The position numbers and the translations under genes are program-made. From an uncultured archaeon (GTDB lineage: Archaea; Asgardarchaeota; Jordiarchaeia; Jordiarchaeales; Jordiarchaeaceae): 24,880 nucleotides of DNA. Location: contig CAZECW010000065.1 in assembly GCA_964510585.1 (NCBI GenBank), forward strand, positions 1-24,880, given 5' to 3'. Shown in pieces: positions 3,264 through 15,261 of the stretch; within the stretch, counting starts at the first letter, position 1; each line of letters starts with the position of its first letter. Under the pieces are notes generated by a model that was not told the DNA's origin, made no database searches, and saw only the letters and a list, made by a program, of their open reading frames with translations.

Positions 3264-4205
3264 TTATTCAACCTCCCTTAACCATTCTATTGAGTTTCCT
3301 ACTCTTTCAAGAATATTTACGAGTTTAGTTTCAGGAATTTCAAGGAGACTAGCAATTTCTTCTAATGTTCTTTTTCCATTGCAGAGTCTTCTGAGCTCCT
3401 TGTAAAAATTAATGTAAGAGGGGTCAATTCCAAAGAGTAATAAACTTCCCCTATCCAGTCTTTTAATTAGAGGATACTGCTTAACCCTTTTAACTATGCT
3501 TTGACTTATTCCTCGCTGGATGGTTTTCCTAACTAATTCTAGTGGAATTCCTGTTTTTTCAGCTATTTCCTGAACTGTTTTTTTACCATCAATTTCCTCT
3601 AATACTTTCAGCTCTACCTCATTAAAAACCTCCAAAAGTTTACTTTTTTGTTCATTAGTTTGGAAAACTGGGGTAAAAATTTCATGTCGCAAAATTTCTG
3701 ATTTAGATCCATCAAGCGTAAATTTTTCATATAACGTTAGGCACTCTTCTGGAGGGAGAGAACTCAACTTTACAACTATTTGATCGATTTTTTTCGAAAA
3801 ATGCATAATGTAGGGTGTTTTAGATAACAATGCTCCCAACCCCCCTTCAGTATAACTTGTAATTGCAGCGTTATCTGACAGCTTCCAAATAATTAGAGAG
3901 AGATCGCTTCTAGGTATGGCATAACTTCCCTTGGGGTAAGATTCGTGATTTTTTTGCACGTAGTCTGATATGAAATTCAGTATCTCTCTCCTCTGAGCTC
4001 TGCTGCAATAAAATATTTTGCCTTGGGTATTTAAAATGCAAATGTTTGCTTTTGGAAAGGTTCCGATGGCGCTTTCAATTTTTTGGGCAATCTTTTCGAG
4101 CTTGCGGAATAACTTTTTTTTCTCCTTCTCATCTAAGCCATCCTTTTTTAATTCCCTTAATTTATCAAATCCCCAACTTCTTGAATAGGGGAAATTGTTC
4201 ATCAA
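3264..4205 (-). CDS. Putative profilin/longin/roadblock-like domain plus tandem winged-helix domains (NPRL2 C-terminus-like)
   Basis: Two repeats of an HTH motif (EEIDGKKTVQEIAEKTGIPLELVRKTI; RLCNGKRTLEEIASLLEIPETKLVNIL). The N-terminal half has alternating beta/alpha pattern (NICILNTQGKIFY...LIIWKLSDNAAITSYT). SD-like GGTGGGAG upstream. Confidence 0.7.
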   Translation of the reverse strand: MMNNFPYSRSWGFDKLRELKKDGLDEKEKKKLFRKLEKIAQKIESAIGTFPKANICILNTQGKIFYCSRAQRREILNFISDYVQKNHESYPKGSYAIPRSDLSLIIWKLSDNAAITSYTEGGLGALLSKTPYIMHFSKKIDQIVVKLSSLPPEECLTLYEKFTLDGSKSEILRHEIFTPVFQTNEQKSKLLEVFNEVELKVLEEIDGKKTVQEIAEKTGIPLELVRKTIQRGISQSIVKRVKQYPLIKRLDRGSLLLFGIDPSYINFYKELRRLCNGKRTLEEIASLLEIPETKLVNILERVGNSIEWLREVE

Positions 4206-4332
4206 AAGTTACTCCCACCTACAAAAATTGTAGCGCACTTGATCCTCTATACCCTAAACCGCTGCTCCAATTTTCTAAACTTAATACCTTTTAAACAATT
4301 TTTACCTATCTTATATGCACCAAATTTGGTAT

Positions 4333-4743
4333 TTAAACCGGAAGGAGTCTACCCGTATCCTTCATACTCATTAACCTATCAAAGATCTTTCTACTAATTA
4401 TCCCCACGATTTTATCACCGTCCTCTACGGCAATCCTCTCCGCATCTGTCTGCTGAAAAATCCTCTCAACCTCTGTAATGGGAGCATTTCTATTCACCTT
4501 ATAGACTGGACTTATCATCACATCCTCCGCTATAAGATCCTGCGGGTTCTCTCCCTCAGCTATCACCCGAAAAATTTCCCTATCTGTCACTATTCCCACA
4601 ATTTCTCCTGAATCATCCTCAACTAAAAGGGAACCAACTTCCTCATTAACCATCATTCTCGCAACCTCTGGGAGAGGATCGTCGGATTTACAGATAACCA
4701 CATTTTTTCTTGCTATGTCATAAGCTATGGACACGGTTTTCAA
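4333..4743 (-). CDS. CBS domain pair protein
   Basis: EVARMMVNEEVGSLLVEDDSGEIVGIVTDREI and IAVEDGDKIVGIISR are canonical CBS repeats. TTG start. Confidence 0.9.
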   Translation of the reverse strand: MKTVSIAYDIARKNVVICKSDDPLPEVARMMVNEEVGSLLVEDDSGEIVGIVTDREIFRVIAEGENPQDLIAEDVMISPVYKVNRNAPITEVERIFQQTDAERIAVEDGDKIVGIISRKIFDRLMSMKDTGRLLPV

Positions 4744-5091
4744 CCCTCAATTCAATGCATTAAAATTTGATTTAATGAAGCTTTATTACCCTTAAATTTG
4801 TTACCCTAAAATTATGAGCAATTACTAATTGGCGAAGCCATTTCAAGAAACTATCTATCAGCACGGATTAAAAAATTTATGGATAAAATATTTTCATCCC
4901 ATTTCCCATACTCAGGTTTACTCTGTAGGTTTCACAAGTCTGTGGAGAAAATTAGAAGACTTCGGAAATATCTCAATCCTTGTTAGACGAGTAATTGCGA
5001 AAATGGAAAAGTTGCAAAGGGCAAGAAACATTACCAAGAAATAGATTTCTAGAAGGGGACTGTTATAGCGTTTGGCTATAAATTGTCCCGT

Positions 5092-5550
5092 CTAATTTTT
5101 GGTGTTTGGAATAAATTTGTGGCACCTTATGCATTCGAACCCGATGGGTTTCTCTTCTCCCACTAATAGTAAGGCGTCGGATTCGCCGAGTTCCCCGTCG
5201 CCGCAAAGGTGAAGAGCAGTAATTTTTGAGGTGTTCCCACAATGGAAACATTCATACTCGTACTCCACAGAGGATACGTTCTTGACTTTATCAATGGATA
5301 CCACATACTTTTCTATGAACATTCTACGACACACAGCACAGGAGTATACTATTTCATCGGCAATTATTGTTGTCGGGCAACCGCAACGGGGACAATTTTT
5401 GTGGGGCCTTTTAACCCGGGATCCAAATAGGCACTTGGTCTCTAATTTTTGATACCATCCACACCATTTGCAGACTTCGTGTAGAGGTGCGTCAGTTTCG
5501 GGTGAGCTGATCCTTTTGAAAACCTTTATGAGCTCGGCTTTTTTCCACAT
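5092..5550 (-). CDS. Cysteine-rich multi-zinc-ribbon protein
   Basis: Five CxxC pairs (CKWC, CPRC, CAVC, CFHC, CIRC). Start moved to the ATG at 5550 (MWKK), which is preceded by GAGGGT. The ORF track starts at 5595. Confidence 0.7.
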   Translation of the reverse strand: MWKKAELIKVFKRISSPETDAPLHEVCKWCGWYQKLETKCLFGSRVKRPHKNCPRCGCPTTIIADEIVYSCAVCRRMFIEKYVVSIDKVKNVSSVEYEYECFHCGNTSKITALHLCGDGELGESDALLLVGEEKPIGFECIRCHKFIPNTKN

Positions 5551-5881
5551 CGCTTTACCCTCATTGCATAGCCTTACGCAGGAGTATTTCTGCATATTCG
5601 CTTGTATAACAAAATTGGCTGAATATGTATATATAGCTTTCTCATCTAATTGAGAATTTCACAATAATTAAAAGTATAATATGCGAAAATCACAAAAAAC
5701 TATATAAAAATAATAGAAAAAATGACGTCCCACCACAAAAATAGTAAAAAATCACATAAAAACAAATGTTTAAAACATTATAAATTCTAAACAAACCTAA
5801 AGGAATTTTTAGAGGGAAAAGACAGAGGTAGATAACACTGTTTTTTCTTACGTGGCTTATAAAAAATTTGATTAACCCTAT

Positions 5882-6265
5882 TTACTGGTTTCGCTTCCAG
5901 AATTGGTTAACCCGTGCTGCGAGACTTCTTAGACAAGAAAGTTTGGAAGGATTGCCACTATATTTATGCATTATGCTCTCAGCGTAAGTCATGAAGCTAT
6001 CAATATCTACTCCTCGTTTAAGAAATAGACAGAGAAGGTTATATTTGTATGAAGACACAACCACATTTTTATCCTTAAAAACTATGGCTTTAGGCAAGAT
6101 GTCGCGATGCATCCCTACCATAAACATGGTGTAAAACTCAGCTATCATTTCCTTTACTGATGTCTCTCCGTCAAGACTCGTTTCCCATTTTAACATTGGA
6201 CCATATTCCTGATCCATACCAATTAATGCCACTGCCTTCAACCCATAATCTTTCAGCGACTCCAT
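5882..6265 (-). CDS. Stand-alone uDENN/NPR2-type longin-like domain protein
   Basis: N-terminal LKAVALIGMDQEYGPMLKWET matches the beta1-(F/M)DxxxGP-beta2 hairpin typical of uDENN/NPRL2/FLCN-type longins. 127 aa. SD GAGGA upstream. Confidence 0.6.
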   Translation of the reverse strand: MESLKDYGLKAVALIGMDQEYGPMLKWETSLDGETSVKEMIAEFYTMFMVGMHRDILPKAIVFKDKNVVVSSYKYNLLCLFLKRGVDIDSFMTYAESIMHKYSGNPSKLSCLRSLAARVNQFWKRNQ

Positions 6266-6534
6266 TTTTAATCCTCCTCTATGCTACTGAGGAAAATTAA
6301 CATAAAGTTATATTAAACATAGTATTTTTTAGATAATATTCAAAGAACCTTTTCTTGAAAATCCAAAAACTCTTATTACGCTTCAAATTATTCTTAAGTA
6401 TTAGAATTCAATAGTATGCAAATATTTAACGAAATGATTATATACAATGCTAAATTAATTATCTAAAATTTTTCTTATTCCCCAATGGAAAAATTAAAAA
6501 GATTCCAAATTAAGGGAAAAAACAGGGAAACATA

Positions 6535-6966
6535 ATGGCCATAAGAAACCTGTATGTCTTCAAATCTTCAGGTCTCCTGCTGTTTCACAAAGACTACCAA
6601 GCAGTCAGTGTAGACTCTAATCTAGTATCAGGCTTCTTCTCAGCGATACAATCGTTTGCCGAAACACTCTTACAGGAAAAAGAAACAGAACTCCACAGTA
6701 TGAATCTAGGCAAATACACATTTATATTTCATTCAGAAGACGATTTAGAAATCACAACAGTAATTGTGGTTGATGACATAAAAAGGGATCAAGAAAACGC
6801 TAAAAGAATTATAGATGCAGTAAATAAAATACTCAAAGAAAAAAAATCAATTGTAGAAAACTTTAAAGGAAATCTTGAAGATTTTTCTGATGTTTCGCAG
6901 AAACTGGATGAGATAATTAAACCAGAAACCCTAGATAAAAGAGCCATAAAAGCCCTATGGGAGTAG
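6535..6966 (+). CDS. Longin domain protein (sedlin/TRAPP/AP-sigma-like, common in Asgard archaea)
   Basis: IRNLYVFKSSGLLLFHKDY...DSNLVSGFFSAIQSFAE...SMNLGKYTFIF is the typical Asgard longin signature. Confidence 0.85.
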   Translation: MAIRNLYVFKSSGLLLFHKDYQAVSVDSNLVSGFFSAIQSFAETLLQEKETELHSMNLGKYTFIFHSEDDLEITTVIVVDDIKRDQENAKRIIDAVNKILKEKKSIVENFKGNLEDFSDVSQKLDEIIKPETLDKRAIKALWE

Positions 6967-7135
6967 CCGAAGAAAAGCAATAATCCAAAAAAGAAGAAAA
7001 GTGATAGATCCAAAATTACAAATTTTTAGCCTCAGAATCTAAACTCCACAACTAGAATGAAGCCTTCTTCAACAAATTAATTTTCAAATTTTAAAAAAGA
7101 CAAAAAAATGTGGTGGATGAAGGGCATCTGAGAGC

Positions 7136-7633
7136 TCACCATTCCCTAGTAATTAAGCCGCCTATCATGCCTAGACCTGCTGGCAGTCCAAAGAGAAGCG
7201 CATAATCCCAACCAGAAACACCTGTAATAATGCCGAATATCGAGCTCCAATCTAGGTGACCGGAAACACCCCAGACAAAGTAGGCGATCACCACTATGAA
7301 GGAGCATATTATCCCAATTATTATAGCCTTTAGAGGATGTTTCGTAATGAGGCCAGAAATGAAGCCTGCAAGACTAAGGGCTGCAATAGGAACAAATGTC
7401 TGTGCAGGTGGACCGGTGGTGGCTAATGTGTGGGGGCGTATCAAGTAGTCCGTAACTGCAAATCGTACAGTAGACCAGAATGCTGTATACTGTCCACCGC
7501 TCTCCCAGGGTAACAGCCACAAACTGTAAGCGTTGTATAGGTTCATCAAAGTGTGCCCCATAGCTACGAAGTAGATAATTCCGAACATTGTCGCAAGACA
7601 TACTATAAAAGCTAAGATATGTCTCAAAATCAT
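7136..7633 (-). CDS. Hypothetical integral membrane protein (~4 TM, glycine-rich helices)
   Basis: Hydrophobic helices with small-residue motifs (AGFISGLIT, GLGMIGGLIT). GGGAG upstream of ATG. Confidence 0.75.
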   Translation of the reverse strand: MILRHILAFIVCLATMFGIIYFVAMGHTLMNLYNAYSLWLLPWESGGQYTAFWSTVRFAVTDYLIRPHTLATTGPPAQTFVPIAALSLAGFISGLITKHPLKAIIIGIICSFIVVIAYFVWGVSGHLDWSSIFGIITGVSGWDYALLFGLPAGLGMIGGLITREW

Positions 7634-7939
7634 TCTTTAATCGCTCCCTTTTTCGTTTTTCTATGTTGATATATTCTTTCAGCTCGTTAAAAATGTGCCG
7701 TTTAAGGCATTCTTTAACTCCGTATAAAACTCGGTTTCTAATCTTCAAATATTCGTAGAATGATTACTTTTAACCCCCACTTTGCAGACTCGGATATTTG
7801 GATAATTGTGCTACTCTCAAATATGTTCAGCAATATTTTGGCTTTTCCGCAGACTTATTGGTTTCCTCTGAGAGATAGAAAGTTTATCTGTGGTGGAAGG
7901 TTCAGCAATAATGCAGAAAATCTGAAAATGGATTTTTAT

Positions 7940-8905
7940 TTATTCTTCACTTGTTTTCTTTTCTGGGTTGGATGCTTTGCCTCCGAATGCTTTTCCAATT
8001 TGACCCGTGATGTTTAGTAGCTCCGTAGGGATGACATATTTTCGAGAGTTTCCAGCAGCCATGTTTCTGAGGGTATCCAAGTATTGTATTCCTAGTGTTT
8101 TGGTATCTATATTCTTTGCCACTCCTTGAATGATTTCCAGAGCTTGGGAGTAGCCTTCTGCCTTTAAAATGGATGCCTGCCTCTTAGCCTCGGCCCTAAG
8201 GATGAGGGCCTTCTTTGCGGCCTCCGCTCTCAAAATTGTTGCCCTCTTTTGTCCCTCTGCCGTTTTTATAGAGGCCACCCTTGTTCCATCAGCCTCAGTG
8301 ACGGTGGCTCTCCTCATTCTTTCTGCTTCCATTTGTTTTATCATTGCTTCAAGAACTTGTGATGGGGGCAGTATTTCCCTTATTTCGACACTTGTAATTT
8401 TAACGCCCCAACGGTTTGTGACTTCATCCAATTTTTCTCTGAGTATATTATTTATGCGTTCCCTCTCAGCCAGAATCTCATCAAGATTTATATCACCCAC
8501 CACCGACCTAAGGGTGGTTTGAGATAATCCCACGGCAGCCCCCTTCCAGTCTGCAACCTTGATGACTGAATCATAGGCGTCCATAATTCTGTGATAAATT
8601 AAAACATCGATCTCTGCAGGAGCATTATCCTTTGTTATGCATTTCTGCCTTGGCACATCAAAGAAGCTCTCTCTCAAATCCACTTTAACGGCTCGGTCTA
8701 TGATAGGAATTACATAGATTAGTCCCGGGCCTTTAGCTCCTGGTAGTGCTCTCCCCAAGCGGAATATTACCGCTCGCTCATATTCTCGGTATACGCGGAG
8801 TCCACTTATAATAACTAGTAAAATGAGTATCAAAACTATTATAAACGCTATGAATATTGGGTTTTCCAACAGTGAGGTTTGAAATTGTAGTGGAGTTGTC
8901 AACAT
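7940..8905 (-). CDS. SPFH/band-7 membrane protein (QmcA/paraslipin-like)
   Basis: N-terminal TM, then YERAVIFRLG, GPGLIYVIPIID, ITKDN, QTTLRSVVG, WGVKITSVEIREI, and an EA-rich coiled coil (EAEG-like repeats). Probable start ATG 8905 after AAGGAG. The ORF track starts at 8956. Confidence 0.92.
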   Translation of the reverse strand: MLTTPLQFQTSLLENPIFIAFIIVLILILLVIISGLRVYREYERAVIFRLGRALPGAKGPGLIYVIPIIDRAVKVDLRESFFDVPRQKCITKDNAPAEIDVLIYHRIMDAYDSVIKVADWKGAAVGLSQTTLRSVVGDINLDEILAERERINNILREKLDEVTNRWGVKITSVEIREILPPSQVLEAMIKQMEAERMRRATVTEADGTRVASIKTAEGQKRATILRAEAAKKALILRAEAKRQASILKAEGYSQALEIIQGVAKNIDTKTLGIQYLDTLRNMAAGNSRKYVIPTELLNITGQIGKAFGGKASNPEKKTSEE

Positions 8906-9139
8906 TTTCTCCTTCTCCCTTATGTTGTATTTACCCTTGCTTTTATATTCCTTCACTGGACTTTTAAATCTTTATAATTATGCATAGCAACTTCTGACAT
9001 TGGACTAAAAGGTTCCAATCAACTTTTTTGTGTGGACATTTCCATTTAGTTATTTTGGTTTGGTTTCCACAGTGTTTAAAAAGTACTTTTACAATTTTAA
9101 TCTTAGGATTTTTGCTAAAATCGCGCTATTTAGAGGTAA

Positions 9140-11818
9140 ATGACATTGTTCCTTGCCCGCTGTGTAGATGATGGAACACTGAATGATTTTTACCTTGTTG
9201 ATGTTCACATGCATTTGGGTGTTGAACGAGGCCCGCCTATAAGGAATTATAATCGCGATAACTTTTTCAAGTTTTGTCAATCAGTGGAGAAAGCCTTTTT
9301 CAAGGAATTGTCTGGTGGATCCCCAAGCATTAAATATAGGCTAGAGGGGGGTAGTGTTCCCAGTAAGTTGGTTAGTTTTCCTATCTTTTTGGAAGGTAGG
9401 GCGAATTCACAAACTTTGTTTGACGAGTTTTTTGTGGCTCCCTACGTGAGTAAGATTGCCTCCGTCAGTGTAGGCCGCATAAAATTTGAAAATGATGAAG
9501 CCCAGGTTTTAGGGAATAATAATTTAATTTTGAAGTGGAGCGCTCTTCCTAGCCTGGAACGTTTCACAACTTTCAAATATGTTATTTTGTCTAAAACAAG
9601 CTCGATAGAGAATGAGATTCGATTGGCTCAGAGTGAGGGTTTTTCTGGTATCAAGGCCAAATTTGACTTTTTAGAAGAATCATTCAAATCTTTACTTAGA
9701 CTCCTGCAGAATAAGAATTTGCCACTCATGATAGAGATGCTGGGTTCAAAAAAATTTGAAACATTTTATGAATTATTAAATGATGCCCGGTTAGAAATTG
9801 GTGGTAATTCAACTCCAATTATCCTCAATTCTTTCGAGTATGATTCAAATGAGGATTTGCTCTGGAAAATTCTAGAAGAGGATAATGTTTACGTGGACCC
9901 ATTTGGCTTGGAGTTTAAAAACCTAGTTTCCTTCATAACTTCGATGAAGAGCAACGTTTCTAATTGGTCTAGGAAAATATTATTCGGCACCAACTATCCT
10001 TTTTGCAAAATTGGTGACACTTTAAAGATTTTAAGGTATCTTTTTAGTTATGATTTTGTGGGGAACGCAACTGATCTTAGGAGAATAATGGGAGCTAACG
10101 CACTGGGACTAATTCCTCCCCGTTACAGTTCAACGGGGGGTTCGGTGGAAGAAAAATGCATCATGGCTATTGATGAGTATTCCGAGCAGGCAGCGAAGAC
10201 ATTCGAAGAATTATTGAGCTACTATATAAAAAGGGGCGCAATAAAAATTAGTTCCTGTGATTTTTTGGCAAGAAGTGAAGATGGAGTTGTCGATGTCTCG
10301 AAGTATTTACTAACTTTAAAGTCTACAAGGGAAAAGGAAAACGGTGTTACCATCTTGTTTATGAAATCTCGAGGAGGCAAAACTCGTGACGCCCTAGCAT
10401 TAGCGGTGCTAAGTCCTAAAACCTTAAGCGGGTTTAAAAATAAAACAATCGAAAATGTTGGAAACAACGAAAACTTGAAGAATCTGCTAAGACAAGCCCA
10501 CTTTATCTCCTCGGATAGTGAAGTTAAAAAAGTATCCGAATTAGTTACTGAGGCACTCTACAAAACCAACACAATCGAAAGAGACGAACTCAAAACATAC
10601 ACGCTCTCTGCGGCTCCGCTCAGCGAAAAGGTTGTAGGAATCAATCCCAAAGATATGCAAGCCCTCGGCCTAAATGACTATGATGTAATCATCGTGGAAC
10701 CTACCGCTACAGGGGACTGGTACGCCGCTCTGGTGAAAAGCTTTGAAGATGTTTCTCTAGGAGACCTGCAAGTTAACGAAGAACTTATGAACGATTGGTA
10801 CGTTTTCGAGGGAGACACAGTAAAAATAGAAAAATATAGTGGCAAAATTGACCTTCTCAGACAAGTGGACTTTGCAATAGAATCTTCAGAAGAAATGAAA
10901 CTACCAGAATTCTTAGTGAAAATTAAAGATAAGATGGATCTACTCTATGAAAAACTAGATGGACTCTACATAGGAAAAGACATGAGACTTATACTATCAA
11001 TGCTATTTTTGGAAACCCCCACCATTATAAGGCCCATTCATTTTCAACCTGAGCTTGAAGACAGAAAGCTTGGAATTATCAAAAAGGGAAAGACCGTAAT
11101 TAATTTTGTCTCTAAAAAATTGATTAAACCATACAATTTACTACTAGTCATAGACGTATCTGAAATTATGAAAGAATCAGAAGTACCCGTTGACGAATTT
11201 GAAAAAATGACGGATCTATTTACTGCACTGGATGCAAATCAAGTGGAGAAATTAGAAAAACAAATCCATAACGGAAAAATCAGAAAAAACAACGCTGTAG
11301 CTTTAATTGGGATTTCCTGCTTAAAGAATCTTTCAGAACAAAGCAATCTAAACAAGGCATCTGTTATATCCTATTCTAATCAAAGCAGTTTGTTCACCAT
11401 ACTAGAAAAAACAAAGGTAATACCCTACATGGATTTCAGCGCAAATAGGAAAAGTTTCTCTCTAAAAGTGCTTTCATCACATATAATTGACAAATGCCAG
11501 TATCCTGAGGGGAAAGCAGACCTCAAAGAAGCAGGAAGCAAAGTTAAAGAGTTCACTGAAAAAATAGGGGGAAAAATTCCAACCCTAATTGTAATAATCA
11601 CCTCTTTGGAAAAAGCAGAGAACTTCGAAGTCTTCCAAGAAATCGCAGATAAAGACCCAAAAATAAAATTCGCATTAATACAAATTGGCCAAACCGAAAA
11701 TGAAAGCGACTTGAGGAAAGCCGTAGAATCCATAAAAGGTAAATATATTCACATCAGAAAAATAGACCACCAAACCTTAGAAATCGATTTAGCATCTATG
11801 CTAATCGACCTTTTATAA
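9140..11818 (+). CDS. Multidomain protein: degenerate amidohydrolase_2 barrel, unknown domain, Cdc48/Ufd1-type N domain, degenerate vWA
   Basis: DVHMHLG, GFSGIK, NVYVD and KILFGTNYPF match amidohydrolase_2 strands. VVGINPKDMQALGLNDYDVIIV...LQVNEELMNDWYVFEGDTVKIEK matches the double-psi beta-barrel pattern. NLLLVIDVSEIM...ASVISYSN...TLIVIITS...FALIQIG...GKYIHI matches the vWA strand order. Confidence 0.78.
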   Translation: MTLFLARCVDDGTLNDFYLVDVHMHLGVERGPPIRNYNRDNFFKFCQSVEKAFFKELSGGSPSIKYRLEGGSVPSKLVSFPIFLEGRANSQTLFDEFFVAPYVSKIASVSVGRIKFENDEAQVLGNNNLILKWSALPSLERFTTFKYVILSKTSSIENEIRLAQSEGFSGIKAKFDFLEESFKSLLRLLQNKNLPLMIEMLGSKKFETFYELLNDARLEIGGNSTPIILNSFEYDSNEDLLWKILEEDNVYVDPFGLEFKNLVSFITSMKSNVSNWSRKILFGTNYPFCKIGDTLKILRYLFSYDFVGNATDLRRIMGANALGLIPPRYSSTGGSVEEKCIMAIDEYSEQAAKTFEELLSYYIKRGAIKISSCDFLARSEDGVVDVSKYLLTLKSTREKENGVTILFMKSRGGKTRDALALAVLSPKTLSGFKNKTIENVGNNENLKNLLRQAHFISSDSEVKKVSELVTEALYKTNTIERDELKTYTLSAAPLSEKVVGINPKDMQALGLNDYDVIIVEPTATGDWYAALVKSFEDVSLGDLQVNEELMNDWYVFEGDTVKIEKYSGKIDLLRQVDFAIESSEEMKLPEFLVKIKDKMDLLYEKLDGLYIGKDMRLILSMLFLETPTIIRPIHFQPELEDRKLGIIKKGKTVINFVSKKLIKPYNLLLVIDVSEIMKESEVPVDEFEKMTDLFTALDANQVEKLEKQIHNGKIRKNNAVALIGISCLKNLSEQSNLNKASVISYSNQSSLFTILEKTKVIPYMDFSANRKSFSLKVLSSHIIDKCQYPEGKADLKEAGSKVKEFTEKIGGKIPTLIVIITSLEKAENFEVFQEIADKDPKIKFALIQIGQTENESDLRKAVESIKGKYIHIRKIDHQTLEIDLASMLIDLL

Positions 11819-11893: not shown

Positions 11894-12895
11894 TTACCAG
11901 TAAAACAGGGAGAACAGAAATATTCTAATCACCAATAGCGCTGAGAAAACCACAAGCCATACTGGAAATTTCCACCTCATAACTTTGAGGCCGTCTAGGG
12001 GTCCGAAAGGTAACATGTTGAATATTCCTATATCTGCGTTTATACTCGCCCCCACAATCAATATTTGATATAAGTTCACCTGCGAGAATAAAGATTGAAC
12101 AGTGGAATTTTGGAAAACAAAGGATAATCCGAGTAAAATTATGCCTAGTACCAAGTTAACTAAAGGTCCTGAAAGAGAAGTCTTGCCTACAGTATGCCAA
12201 TCGCTAGATCCAGAAATCATCACTGCGCCTGGCGCCAGGAACTTTAAAGGAGAAATAATGGAAACTAGTGTCACAAGAACCCCACTAAATATTAATCTAA
12301 ATTCTGCTCGAAGACCATACATTTCGGCAACAAATTTATGGGCGAATTCATGTAGTAGAAAACTCACCACAACAATGGCTCCTAACCACAAAGCATTATC
12401 GATTTGAAAGACCAGCAGAAAGTTTGACAACCATGGTACAAAAGAAACCAACCAGGTTAATCCACTGAGGACCATCCAGATAAGAGTTCCAAACACAAAA
12501 TTGCCCAGCCCACTACTCAAAACCCATACTACACTGTAAATTAAACTTGAAAACACAACAACCAAAACAATGAACGTGGCAATAGAGATATGGGCGACTT
12601 CCTTTTTTGAAGGCACTATTCTTGCCAATCTAGCAGCGGGCTTATCATATATGATGCGTTTCGGAACTATATCCCTATCAAAGGTTCTCTCCTCATGTTT
12701 TGTTTCCATCTTCGCTGGTGTTCTTCCCAATTTGTTCCCTTTTTCTGAAACTAAAAGCGTCGAAGTACAATTATGGTTTTCTGGGAGACGATGTTCTATG
12801 CAAAAGTAACCCCCACAATTTCGGCACCTGAAAGGTAGGTAGTCTTCCTTACCACAGAAATCACACTTGACCACTTCATAATCCTCCGCAACCAT
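11894..12895 (-). CDS. AN1-type zinc finger fused to M50 (site-2) intramembrane metalloprotease
   Basis: CDFCGKEDYLPFRCRNCGGYFCIEHRLPENHNC (AN1), HEFAH (HExxH), NMLPFGPLDG (NxxPxxxxDG) and multiple TM helices. Confidence 0.92.
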   Translation of the reverse strand: MVAEDYEVVKCDFCGKEDYLPFRCRNCGGYFCIEHRLPENHNCTSTLLVSEKGNKLGRTPAKMETKHEERTFDRDIVPKRIIYDKPAARLARIVPSKKEVAHISIATFIVLVVVFSSLIYSVVWVLSSGLGNFVFGTLIWMVLSGLTWLVSFVPWLSNFLLVFQIDNALWLGAIVVVSFLLHEFAHKFVAEMYGLRAEFRLIFSGVLVTLVSIISPLKFLAPGAVMISGSSDWHTVGKTSLSGPLVNLVLGIILLGLSFVFQNSTVQSLFSQVNLYQILIVGASINADIGIFNMLPFGPLDGLKVMRWKFPVWLVVFSALLVIRIFLFSLFYW

Positions 12896-14097: not shown

Positions 14098-15261
14098 ATG
14101 TCTTCAGAAGAGGATAACTCCGTGGTTTTTGAACCATGGAGTAGAAAAGCAGGCATAGCAGGAAGCTCATACCTAGTACAAATAGGAAAAGTGAATGATT
14201 ACTGGTCCATAGCTATATTCCGGGGAAAAGACTTAATATCCGTAAAAAAAGTAGGCACACTTGACCCCAACGTGCTTACCAGCGTTATAACCAGCAGTAT
14301 ATCCTTACCTCTAATGTCCCCTTATGCAATCGTGAGAAGCTTGGGAAACATTATAAACGAAGCAAAAGTGAGAAAATTTCCCATAACTTACACCCCAGGT
14401 CCCACTGAGGAACAACCAACCATTCCCACCCCAGAGACCTCTCTTGAAGCCGCTCCCACTCCTGCCCCTACTCCTACTTCTGCTGCTGTAGAGGAAGCCG
14501 CTCCAAAACCTCAAACAGATTTTGAGGCGCTAACTGGCTTAAAAAGGGTAGAGCCGTCTAAGGTTGCTGTTCAGGAGGAGTCTGCCAAAATTGCTAAATC
14601 CGAAGTTGAGATAAGTGAAACACTGGGTGAGCCTGAATTGGAAGAGGCGGAGGCACCTAAAACCGAGTCCTCAGAGGATATGTTAAGTGAGTTCGCTACG
14701 GGACCCAGCACCGCTTTTCGTTCTATGTTCGAAGAGGGAATTCCAGCCGAGCCCAAGGTTCGTAAAACTACTGCTCCCATGATAGAAATTCCCACCTTGT
14801 CTCCTTCAGAAATGTGGCAGAAAGGGATTTCTGGTTTAACCTTCTTTTTGGCAATAGCAATATCTTTCGTGAGGAAAAGATATGGTAAAGATTTGGACAA
14901 GCTTTGGCAGTATTATTTGGAGGTGGAGACTAAATCTTGGAAGGCTGCTAAAGACATGAAATTTGAAGAGGTAGTGAAGACCATAGTAAATATTGAGAGG
15001 TCTATGGGTTCAGAATTAGAGGTACAAGAGTTTACTGATAGTACCTTTAAAGCCAAAGTCACAAAGTGCCTAGGTAAAAACTACAAAGAAAAATACAAGT
15101 CAGCACTCCAGCTACCTGACGAGTTTCCCTGCATACTATGTAAAATCAGAGGTGAGGCAGTTAGTCGCAACCTTGGGTATTCCTTTAAACTCATAGAATC
15201 GCCAGAAGGATGCCAGCTAGAAATGAGTTCCTCCCCCAAAAAAGAAAAACTAATTATCTAG
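14098..15261 (+). CDS. Hypothetical protein: N-terminal globular domain, long P/E/T/A-rich linker, C-terminal V4R/ATC-hydrolase-like Cys-containing domain
   Basis: Linker roughly aa 95-235 is low complexity. The C-terminus ELEVQEFTDSTFKAKVTKCLG...FPCILC...SPEGCQLEM has the V4R-clan cysteine spacing. Confidence 0.7.
   Translation: MSSEEDNSVVFEPWSRKAGIAGSSYLVQIGKVNDYWSIAIFRGKDLISVKKVGTLDPNVLTSVITSSISLPLMSPYAIVRSLGNIINEAKVRKFPITYTPGPTEEQPTIPTPETSLEAAPTPAPTPTSAAVEEAAPKPQTDFEALTGLKRVEPSKVAVQEESAKIAKSEVEISETLGEPELEEAEAPKTESSEDMLSEFATGPSTAFRSMFEEGIPAEPKVRKTTAPMIEIPTLSPSEMWQKGISGLTFFLAIAISFVRKRYGKDLDKLWQYYLEVETKSWKAAKDMKFEEVVKTIVNIERSMGSELEVQEFTDSTFKAKVTKCLGKNYKEKYKSALQLPDEFPCILCKIRGEAVSRNLGYSFKLIESPEGCQLEMSSSPKKEKLII

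Follow-up and report, generated by a model that had tools for sequence, protein, structure and literature searches.

Inactive paralogues that are kept beside an active one are known from the Rpn8-Rpn11 and CSN6-CSN5 pairs, in which a dead (MPN-) protein is matched with an active (MPN+) relative. A comparable arrangement is described here for Asgard archaea, the closest known relatives of eukaryotes. The gene in question lies on a contig of 24,880 nucleotides from an uncultured archaeon of the Jordiarchaeaceae (CAZECW010000065.1, assembly GCA_964510585.1); this whole stretch is referred to as the window. A single open reading frame (ORF) of 892 codons at 9140-11818 on the plus strand, the longest of the window, encodes an inactivated amidohydrolase, a middle domain, a Cdc48-type N domain and a von Willebrand factor A (vWA) domain without metal-ion-dependent adhesion site (MIDAS). 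The ORF and its translation are as given in an earlier reading made from the sequence only. The new finding is that this protein is the fused paralogue of a pan-Asgard gene pair, an amidohydrolase followed by a Cdc48N-vWA protein, whose ligands are kept in all sampled split copies and in no fused copy. As in the Rpn8-Rpn11 and CSN6-CSN5 pairs, the inactive paralogue is kept beside the active one, and in Thorarchaeota the two are encoded adjacent to each other. In contrast to those pairs, other folds are involved, and the inactive protein is a fusion of two former partners that has lost both of their sites together.

The protein is probably a pseudo-enzyme/adaptor scaffold assembled from known folds. 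Its two-lobed N domain is shared, over about 160-190 aligned positions, with the N domains of Cdc48/p97/VAT, PEX1 and NSF/Sec18 and with the UT3 domain of Ufd1. Unlike the AAA+ proteins Cdc48, p97 and VAT, it carries no AAA+ (D1/D2) modules after the N domain; identity is 12-20%, and the CDC48_N Pfam score is 18.5 against a cut-off of 35.1 bits. The UT3 fold of Ufd1 is matched too, but Cdc48-type N domains score higher and a vWA domain takes the place of the Ufd1-type tail. By sequence, the family profile matches best in the PDB to the vWA proteins ArnB/VWA2 (PDB 5a8j and 8s05; E 1.5e-8 and 1.7e-7), which lack a Cdc48-N domain. No FHA partner accompanies the fused protein. With Rpn10 it shares a vWA domain that apparently serves protein docking and not MIDAS-mediated binding. 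However, the vWA domain of Rpn10 is followed by ubiquitin-interacting motifs (UIMs), while in the fused protein nothing follows the final helix of the vWA domain (residue 892), and there is no proteasome context.

The fused family and its split counterpart

When the protein was searched alone, all Pfam matches were below threshold, namely CDC48_N at residues 496-567 (E 2e-3), Amidohydro_2 at 242-322 (E 4e-3; direct PF04909 score 17.5-19.7 bits, under the cut-off of 26.4 bits) and VWA_2/VWA_3 (E about 0.1), and a sequence search of the PDB gave no match. When phmmer was run exhaustively against 1.8 billion cluster representatives, 69 relatives were found. About 25 clusters consist of full-length proteins of 850-907 residues with 16-30% identity. 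A second group comprises stand-alone proteins of 470-560 residues that align with residues 10-400; the best of them has E 7e-15 over residues 12-396. The third consists of stand-alone proteins of 420-450 residues that align with residues 495-875, the best with E 2.5e-12 over residues 499-869. Close full-length orthologues number 14, at 55-97% identity. Scanned member by member, the N half yields Amidohydro_2 in 21 of 31 sequences (best 8e-15), and the C half yields VWA in 14 and CDC48_N in 8 of 39 (best 3e-10 and 2e-6). The domain calls are solid because the stand-alone relatives found by phmmer themselves match Amidohydro_2, VWA and CDC48_N. Family profiles searched against the PDB agree with them: the N half finds amidohydrolase structures of the LigW/ACMSD type (7e-5), and the C half finds 8s05 and 5a8j, both vWA structures from archaea (1e-8), as well as designed double-psi barrels (6e-8) and, at 2e-3, N domains of p97.

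The four-domain architecture corresponds to no catalogued Pfam or NCBIfam family, as the sequence-only reading had supposed. NCBIfam gave nothing significant. For the orthologues no Pfam domains are precomputed, and their names are 'hypothetical', 'VWA domain-containing' or 'amidohydrolase family'; an 848-residue entry of the AlphaFold DB bears the generic name 'VWA domain-containing protein'. A literature search found no paper describing the fused or the split family.

The split pair consists of an amidohydrolase of 470-510 residues and a Cdc48N-vWA protein of 425-450 residues, which together have the same four domains as the fused protein, in the same order over two genes; both halves are homologous by phmmer. 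The two forms differ in that the pair keeps all metal ligands and an intact MIDAS and is found Asgard-wide, whereas the fused form is a single polypeptide in which both sites have degenerated, and among the sampled families only four have it. In the databases the split proteins are named only 'amidohydrolase family protein' and 'VWA domain-containing protein'. Because the two partners are fused in the 892-residue protein, the amidohydrolase and the Cdc48N-vWA protein can be expected to act together (the Rosetta-stone argument).

The two split genes are adjacent or nearly so in four lineages: Asgardarchaeum, the genome from which the window comes, Thorarchaeota and the single genome of family f26. 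On the Asgardarchaeum contig, a 482-residue amidohydrolase with the motifs DAHHHVG, GLKLHP, AHCG and FGTDSP ends 46 bp before a 426-residue Cdc48N-vWA gene. The window's own genome carries the pair on one strand of another contig (C47, locus L013), where the 511-residue amidohydrolase (3712-5247) and the 442-residue Cdc48N-vWA protein (8441-9769) are separated only by an AbiEi/AbiEii-type toxin-antitoxin pair (5984-7950). This Cdc48N-vWA copy has an intact MIDAS and scores 39.5 bits for CDC48_N, above the cut-off. Downstream of the pair lie a convergent gene for a 1371-residue GCS2-type ligase and genes for an ArsR-type regulator, a Cdc48 ATPase and Hsp20; the Cdc48 gene is 5 kb away from that of the split Cdc48N-vWA protein. 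In Thorarchaeota the fused gene and the split pair are arranged head-to-head, with a shared spacer of 124 bp in one genome (locus L011, GCA_021498125.1); in a profile search of the phylum the same order, at 1.7-3 kb on opposite strands, appears in dozens of genomes. The split Cdc48N-vWA gene of that locus (5023-6381, minus strand) is called as 367 residues, starting inside the double-psi barrel. Its true start is probably a non-ATG codon, because the open frame runs about 65 codons further upstream and encodes the missing N-terminal strands.

Stand-alone Cdc48N-vWA proteins are much more widely distributed than the fused form and are named from Loki/Promethearchaeota, Sigyn-, Hod-, Heimdall- and Odinarchaeota, with 43-62% identity to the Freyarchaeial copy. 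Five of these split relatives, of about 580 residues, carry an N-terminal ubiquitin domain (PF00240). In a Hodarchaeota locus (L028, GCA_048886965.1, 3503-9764), a 587-residue ubiquitin-Cdc48N-vWA protein stands beside an operon for ubiquitin, a ThiF-type E1, a UQ_con-type E2 and a JAB protein. A coiled-coil protein is encoded directly 5' of the 587-residue protein, and an Arf/Gtr1_RagA-like GTPase 7 kb away.

Ligand sites, selection and origin

The Amidohydro_2-type (beta/alpha)8 barrel spans residues 1-335 (9140-10144, plus strand), and its homology rests on the E value of 7e-15 to stand-alone relatives that themselves match PF04909 at 8e-15. In the split amidohydrolases D21, H23, H25, K172, H174, D/H199 and D285 are intact in all 21 sequences. 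The fused protein of the window keeps the HxH of strand 1 (H23, H25). Alignment with the stand-alone enzymes places K174 at the His of 'GLKLHP' and E199 at the D/H position of 'PVIFD/H'; 'ILAH' has become ILNS (within IILNSF), with N230/S231 and no His at that site, and FGTDYP has become FGTNYP, so that the strand-8 Asp is N285, which is invariant in the window's own clade. Across the 26 fused clusters H174 and D285 are absent without exception, and position 285 is N, A, G, S, L or T, compared with D in 21 of 21 split enzymes. The HxH is retained in six fused clusters, all of the same clade as the window's gene, and lost in the other 20; it varies even within the genus, as residue 23 is R in G038, a complete genome. 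Conserved remnants of the pocket are D21, D95, W276 and Y286-P287; D21 and D95 are invariant across fused and split proteins, and E199 is frequent. The fused copies of Jordarchaeia and Thorarchaeota share no replacement residue at the positions of the strand-8 Asp and the 'KLHP' His.

The vWA domain occupies residues 665-892 (11132-11815, plus strand) and forms the end of the protein. The phmmer alignment to the split proteins, which match VWA at 3e-10, extends to residue 869; a beta-alpha-beta pattern in this part of the full-length model gives weak further support, at a predicted local distance difference test (pLDDT) score of 60-82. The DxSxS motif of the MIDAS reads D672-V-S674-E-I676, and most orthologues have N as residue 672; the Thr of the MIDAS is missing, and ITS stands where TDG is expected. 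The complete MIDAS (DxSxS, Thr and LTDG) is intact in 12 of 12 split proteins and in none of 27 fused copies. The sequence-only reading had called both the amidohydrolase and the MIDAS dead. Both calls are confirmed, with the residues corrected as given above; it had also asked whether the loss is conserved among orthologues, and no fused copy has the full ligand set of the barrel (0/26) or of the MIDAS (0/27). Inactivation is family-wide, since the fused orthologues do not keep full ligands.

The ratio of nonsynonymous to synonymous substitution rates (dN/dS), calculated by the Nei-Gojobori method against orthologues of the same genus (dS 0.17-0.49), is 0.11-0.20 overall and 0.06-0.25 in each of the four domains, the barrel giving 0.15-0.23 and the middle domain 0.06-0.25. 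These low values in all four domains indicate that the inactivated domains are maintained by selection.

Two independent maximum-likelihood trees, both unrooted, were computed, one from 60 sequences of the C half and one from 50 of the N half. In both, all fused copies fall on one side of a single branch with a support of 99 in the Shimodaira-Hasegawa-like approximate likelihood ratio test (SH-aLRT). An approximately unbiased (AU) test rejects a grouping of the fused with the split copies of Jordarchaeia (p 6e-12). Both results fit a single ancient event in which the pair was duplicated and fused, the two halves having co-evolved since. Among 301 genomes of the phylum searched with a profile, full-length fused ORFs were found in five of five other sampled genomes of the genus (f1) and in five of five from a second family of the order (f2), hence in all ten of Jordarchaeia/Freyarchaeia, in about 67 of 76 from family f7 (Thorarchaeota, with the L011 assembly placed there by matching coordinates) and in the single genome of f26; the other families gave split-type matches only. 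In every genome inspected the split pair is present alongside the fused gene and has not been replaced by it.

Fold of the N domain and the middle domain

The Cdc48/p97-type N domain, with a double-psi beta-barrel (Nn) and an Nc lobe, spans residues 487-664 (10598-11131, plus strand). An AlphaFold model of residues 486-664, built from an alignment of 37 sequences, reached pLDDT 92.1 and a predicted template modelling (pTM) score of 0.85. In a Foldseek search of the PDB the top 50 matches are all N domains of SPATA5, p97, Cdc48 and NSF (E 1e-11 to 3e-9), in alignments of 175-190 columns with template modelling (TM) scores of 0.6-0.7. An independent structure search, all against representatives, gave Z scores of 15.2 for CDC48A-N, 15.0 for PEX1-N, 13.5 for Sec18-N, 13.2 for VAT-N, 12.6 for NSF-N and 11.4 for UFD1, and barrel-only matches span just the first 80 residues of the model. 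Among the Swiss-Prot models archaeal Cdc48 ranks first, and Ufd1 appears at ranks 28-29 (E 8.5e-9, TM 0.61-0.64). Both lobes of the fold are therefore present, and the assignment of a Cdc48-N/Ufd1-type fold to about residues 495-655, made earlier from the sequence, is right. The AAA module is missing, as was also proposed there: no AAA Pfam match appears at E up to 10, and the vWA domain is followed by the stop codon.

The alpha/beta middle domain (residues 338-486; 10151-10597, plus strand) is also found, in the alignments, as the C-terminal extension of the stand-alone amidohydrolases. A 30-sequence profile of it had no match in the PDB (best E 0.14), and there was no Pfam match and no usable match in the ESM Atlas.

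Other proteins with related domains were encountered. On contig C98 of the same genome (locus L006, 1429-2997) lies a protein of the AMP/thymidine-phosphorylase type with an N-terminal double-psi barrel and a weak CDC48_N match; it matches PDB 4ga5, which is also among the barrel-only structural matches of the N-domain model. The AlphaFold DB entry A0A5B9D9Q0, of 724 residues, has a Cdc48-N-type domain at residues 315-481 (TM 0.70) and may be another architecture with an array of N domains and no AAA module.

Possible roles and gene neighbourhoods

Most probably the fused protein is a paralogue, without catalytic activity, of a two-protein module of Asgard archaea, acting as an inactive mimic, a scaffold or a regulatory subunit. 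A non-catalytic role, which had been suggested from the sequence, is the best reading because all orthologues share the loss of ligands and yet the gene is under purifying selection. The active module would consist of a metal-dependent Amidohydro_2 enzyme with a C-terminal alpha/beta domain and a Cdc48N adaptor with a MIDAS-bearing vWA domain. An ancient duplicate of the gene pair may have been fused into one chain and then have lost the hydrolase ligands and the MIDAS, keeping the four folds under purifying selection. The product would be a covalently fixed, inactive mimic of the amidohydrolase-adaptor complex, without canonical barrel metal or MIDAS ion, which could bind a protein or peptide ligand through the Cdc48-N cleft and the remnant barrel pocket. 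It might thus stand in the same pathway as the active pair, either binding the same ligand without turnover or pairing with the active proteins, and possibly be placed near SPFH/stomatin membrane scaffolds. From the genes we infer a complex of the two split proteins, binding of the fused copy to the partners or ligands that they bind, and a link to SPFH proteins.

This link is suggested by the neighbourhood. Upstream of the fused gene, and transcribed away from it, lies an SPFH/Band_7 (stomatin/HflK-like) gene (7940-8956, minus strand), a neighbour kept in both Jordarchaeia clades (63% and 30% identity to the fused protein). Four of five Thorarchaeota genera have a Band_7 gene, accompanied by NfeD in L011, at a distance of 6.2-6.6 kb, and the genomes examined there have only 2-4 Band_7 genes each.

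Several points weigh against a non-catalytic, SPFH-linked paralogue of single origin. Loss of the canonical ligands may be compatible with metal-independent or different chemistry, and the window's own clade keeps the HxH, D21, D95 and E199. The single branch between fused and split copies may have been helped by long-branch attraction, as the fused sequences are fast-evolving. The Band_7 gene is not near the fused gene in genome G244 or in the f26 genome, and synteny within Thorarchaeota is not independent evidence. The full-length AlphaFold model, computed with 15 close orthologues, has a pLDDT of 48 and is unusable for fold searches.

Of the other readings, the one that survives best is that the fused protein is a regulatory or pseudo-subunit of an Asgard 'ligase-hydrolase-vWA' module, in which an amide-bond mark might be written and erased by a giant carboxylate-amine ligase of the GCS2 type together with the amidohydrolase and the Cdc48N-vWA protein, and would be read or protected by the fused copy. 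The giant ligase accompanies split genes in three lineages: it adjoins the split pair in Asgardarchaeum and in the window's genome, and in a Heimdallarchaeon it adjoins the split amidohydrolase. In the second Jordarchaeia clade it is found at a distance of 7 kb from the fused gene. However, no GCS2 gene was found within 8 kb of the fused gene in Thorarchaeota or in the window. This role, which is a special case of the best explanation and not a true alternative to it, is conceivable but doubtful. The PADLOC defence models matched neither the fused protein, nor the split pair, nor the GCS2 giant.

The sequence-only reading favoured a non-catalytic adaptor or ligand sensor for a Cdc48/proteasome pathway. 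In such a role the protein would be an adaptor or substrate receptor of a Cdc48/proteasome/ubiquitin-like pathway, whose N domain would bind ubiquitin-like tags or substrates and whose MIDAS-less vWA domain would dock, like that of Rpn10, on the proteasome or an AAA machine. AN1 zinc fingers occur in eukaryotic p97/proteasome cofactors, and the downstream neighbour in the window's own clade (11894-12895, minus strand), convergent with the fused gene, encodes an AN1-type zinc finger fused to a multi-pass M50 (site-2-protease-like) membrane domain. Consistent with such a role are also the match of the N domain to Ufd1 UT3 as well as to Cdc48 N, the ubiquitin heads of five active split relatives, one of them beside the ubiquitin/E1/E2/JAB genes, and the four Cdc48 genes and two ubiquitin/E2 clusters of the genome. 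But the latter all lie on contigs other than that of the fused gene, and no Cdc48, PAN, proteasome or ubiquitin-system gene is found near the fused gene in any lineage examined, the conserved neighbour being SPFH/Band_7; the AN1-M50 gene is limited to the closest clade (L008, L030). It is the split relatives, with their active MIDAS, that bear the link to ubiquitin, and the fused protein ends with the vWA domain, without a UIM-like tail. Sharing the Cdc48-N fold does not imply Cdc48 binding, and fold resemblance alone shows no partner. What stands of this proposal are the ubiquitin heads and the one operon, in active split relatives only, and for the fused protein it is unlikely.

It is still less likely that the fused protein is an enzyme, either metal-independent, as LigI is among amidohydrolases, or with a site rebuilt from the HxH, D21, D95 and E199 to which the Cdc48N-vWA half delivers substrate: the H23/H25 of its own genus, the invariant D21 and D95, the frequent E199 and the selection on the barrel would fit, but the HxH is mostly lost and varies within the genus, the strand-8 Asp and 'KLHP' His are gone from every fused cluster, and the two main groups share no residue in their place.

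A further comparison concerns the eukaryotic DEPDC5/Iml1 proteins. The trunk of Sec23 is vWA-like. Over both lobes, the N-domain model matches the N-terminal domain (NTD) of DEPDC5 (residues 6-167; Z 11.8 and 11.2) and that of yeast Sea1/Iml1 (residues 103-275; Z 9.0). The NTD of DEPDC5 has been described as Sec18/NSF-like and its SABA domain as Sec23-like and binding NPRL2 (PMC8534245; see also PMC9646525). The N-terminal half of DEPDC5/Iml1 thus has the same layout as the C half of the fused protein, a Cdc48N-like domain followed by a MIDAS-less vWA-like domain. In contrast to DEPDC5/Iml1, the fused protein lacks the SHEN, DEP and C-terminal (CTD) domains, with no DEP match, and ends after the vWA domain. 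The IML1 Pfam family (PF12257) matched neither the fused gene nor its paralogues and gave only a chance-level match elsewhere in the genome; a profile of fused C halves only, searched against the PDB, found no DEPDC5 or Sec23. DEPDC5/Iml1 is the scaffold of the GATOR1/SEACIT GTPase-activating complex for Rag GTPases, and it is very improbable that this half is an archaeal counterpart of its NTD-SABA module or the source from which that module evolved; if true, longin/winged-helix NPRL2-like proteins and small GTPases might dock at SPFH-organised membrane sites in Asgard archaea.

An NPR2-like protein with tandem winged helices (3264-4205, minus strand; Pfam NPR2 E 7e-4) and two small longin-type proteins (5882-6265, minus strand, and 6535-6966, plus strand) are encoded 3-6 kb upstream of the fused gene. 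The NPRL2-like protein was considered as a conserved neighbour and rejected, as outside the genus its homologues are separated from the fused gene by more than 800 kb or are on different contigs. Its winged-helix homologues occur in the Asgard families that carry the fused gene and in a few others, and are syntenic only within the genus.

Conserved Asgard-specific multidomain proteins made of 'eukaryote-style' adaptor parts, such as Cdc48-N, vWA and ubiquitin-like heads, are candidate precursors of eukaryotic regulatory machines. The gene pair, its doubly inactivated fused paralogue and their neighbourhoods are laid out here over dozens of genomes, and the fused protein would offer a natural case in which a pseudo-complex has been retained over hundreds of millions of years. 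Candidate partners are SPFH/stomatin proteins, the GCS2 ligase, the ubiquitin system and NPRL2-like proteins. The value of the family lies in an undescribed Asgard module made testable, rather than in a solved mechanism.

As for the remaining features of the window, a 387-residue protein is encoded at 14098-15261 on the plus strand. In the second Jordarchaeia clade a homologue with 37% identity (L009 10628-11659, and L034) lies directly 3' of the fused gene on the same strand. The protein has a Pro/Glu/Ala-rich linker and a Cys-containing C-terminal domain, and gave no match in a Pfam scan; a 381-residue neighbour in Thorarchaeota was considered as a homologue and discarded, as it shows no similarity. 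Longin proteins, a gelsolin-domain protein and the NPR2-like winged-helix protein are Asgard hallmarks around the gene, and the closest homologues carry the source names Candidatus Freyarchaeota, Jordarchaeaceae or Lokiarchaeia. The AT-rich divergent intergenic region of 183 bp between the fused and the Band_7 gene (8957-9139) probably holds the promoters of both. A Shine-Dalgarno-like GAGG is found 4-8 nucleotides 5' of the ATG at 9140, and an AT-rich TTTAAAAA about 60 nucleotides 5' of the same codon.

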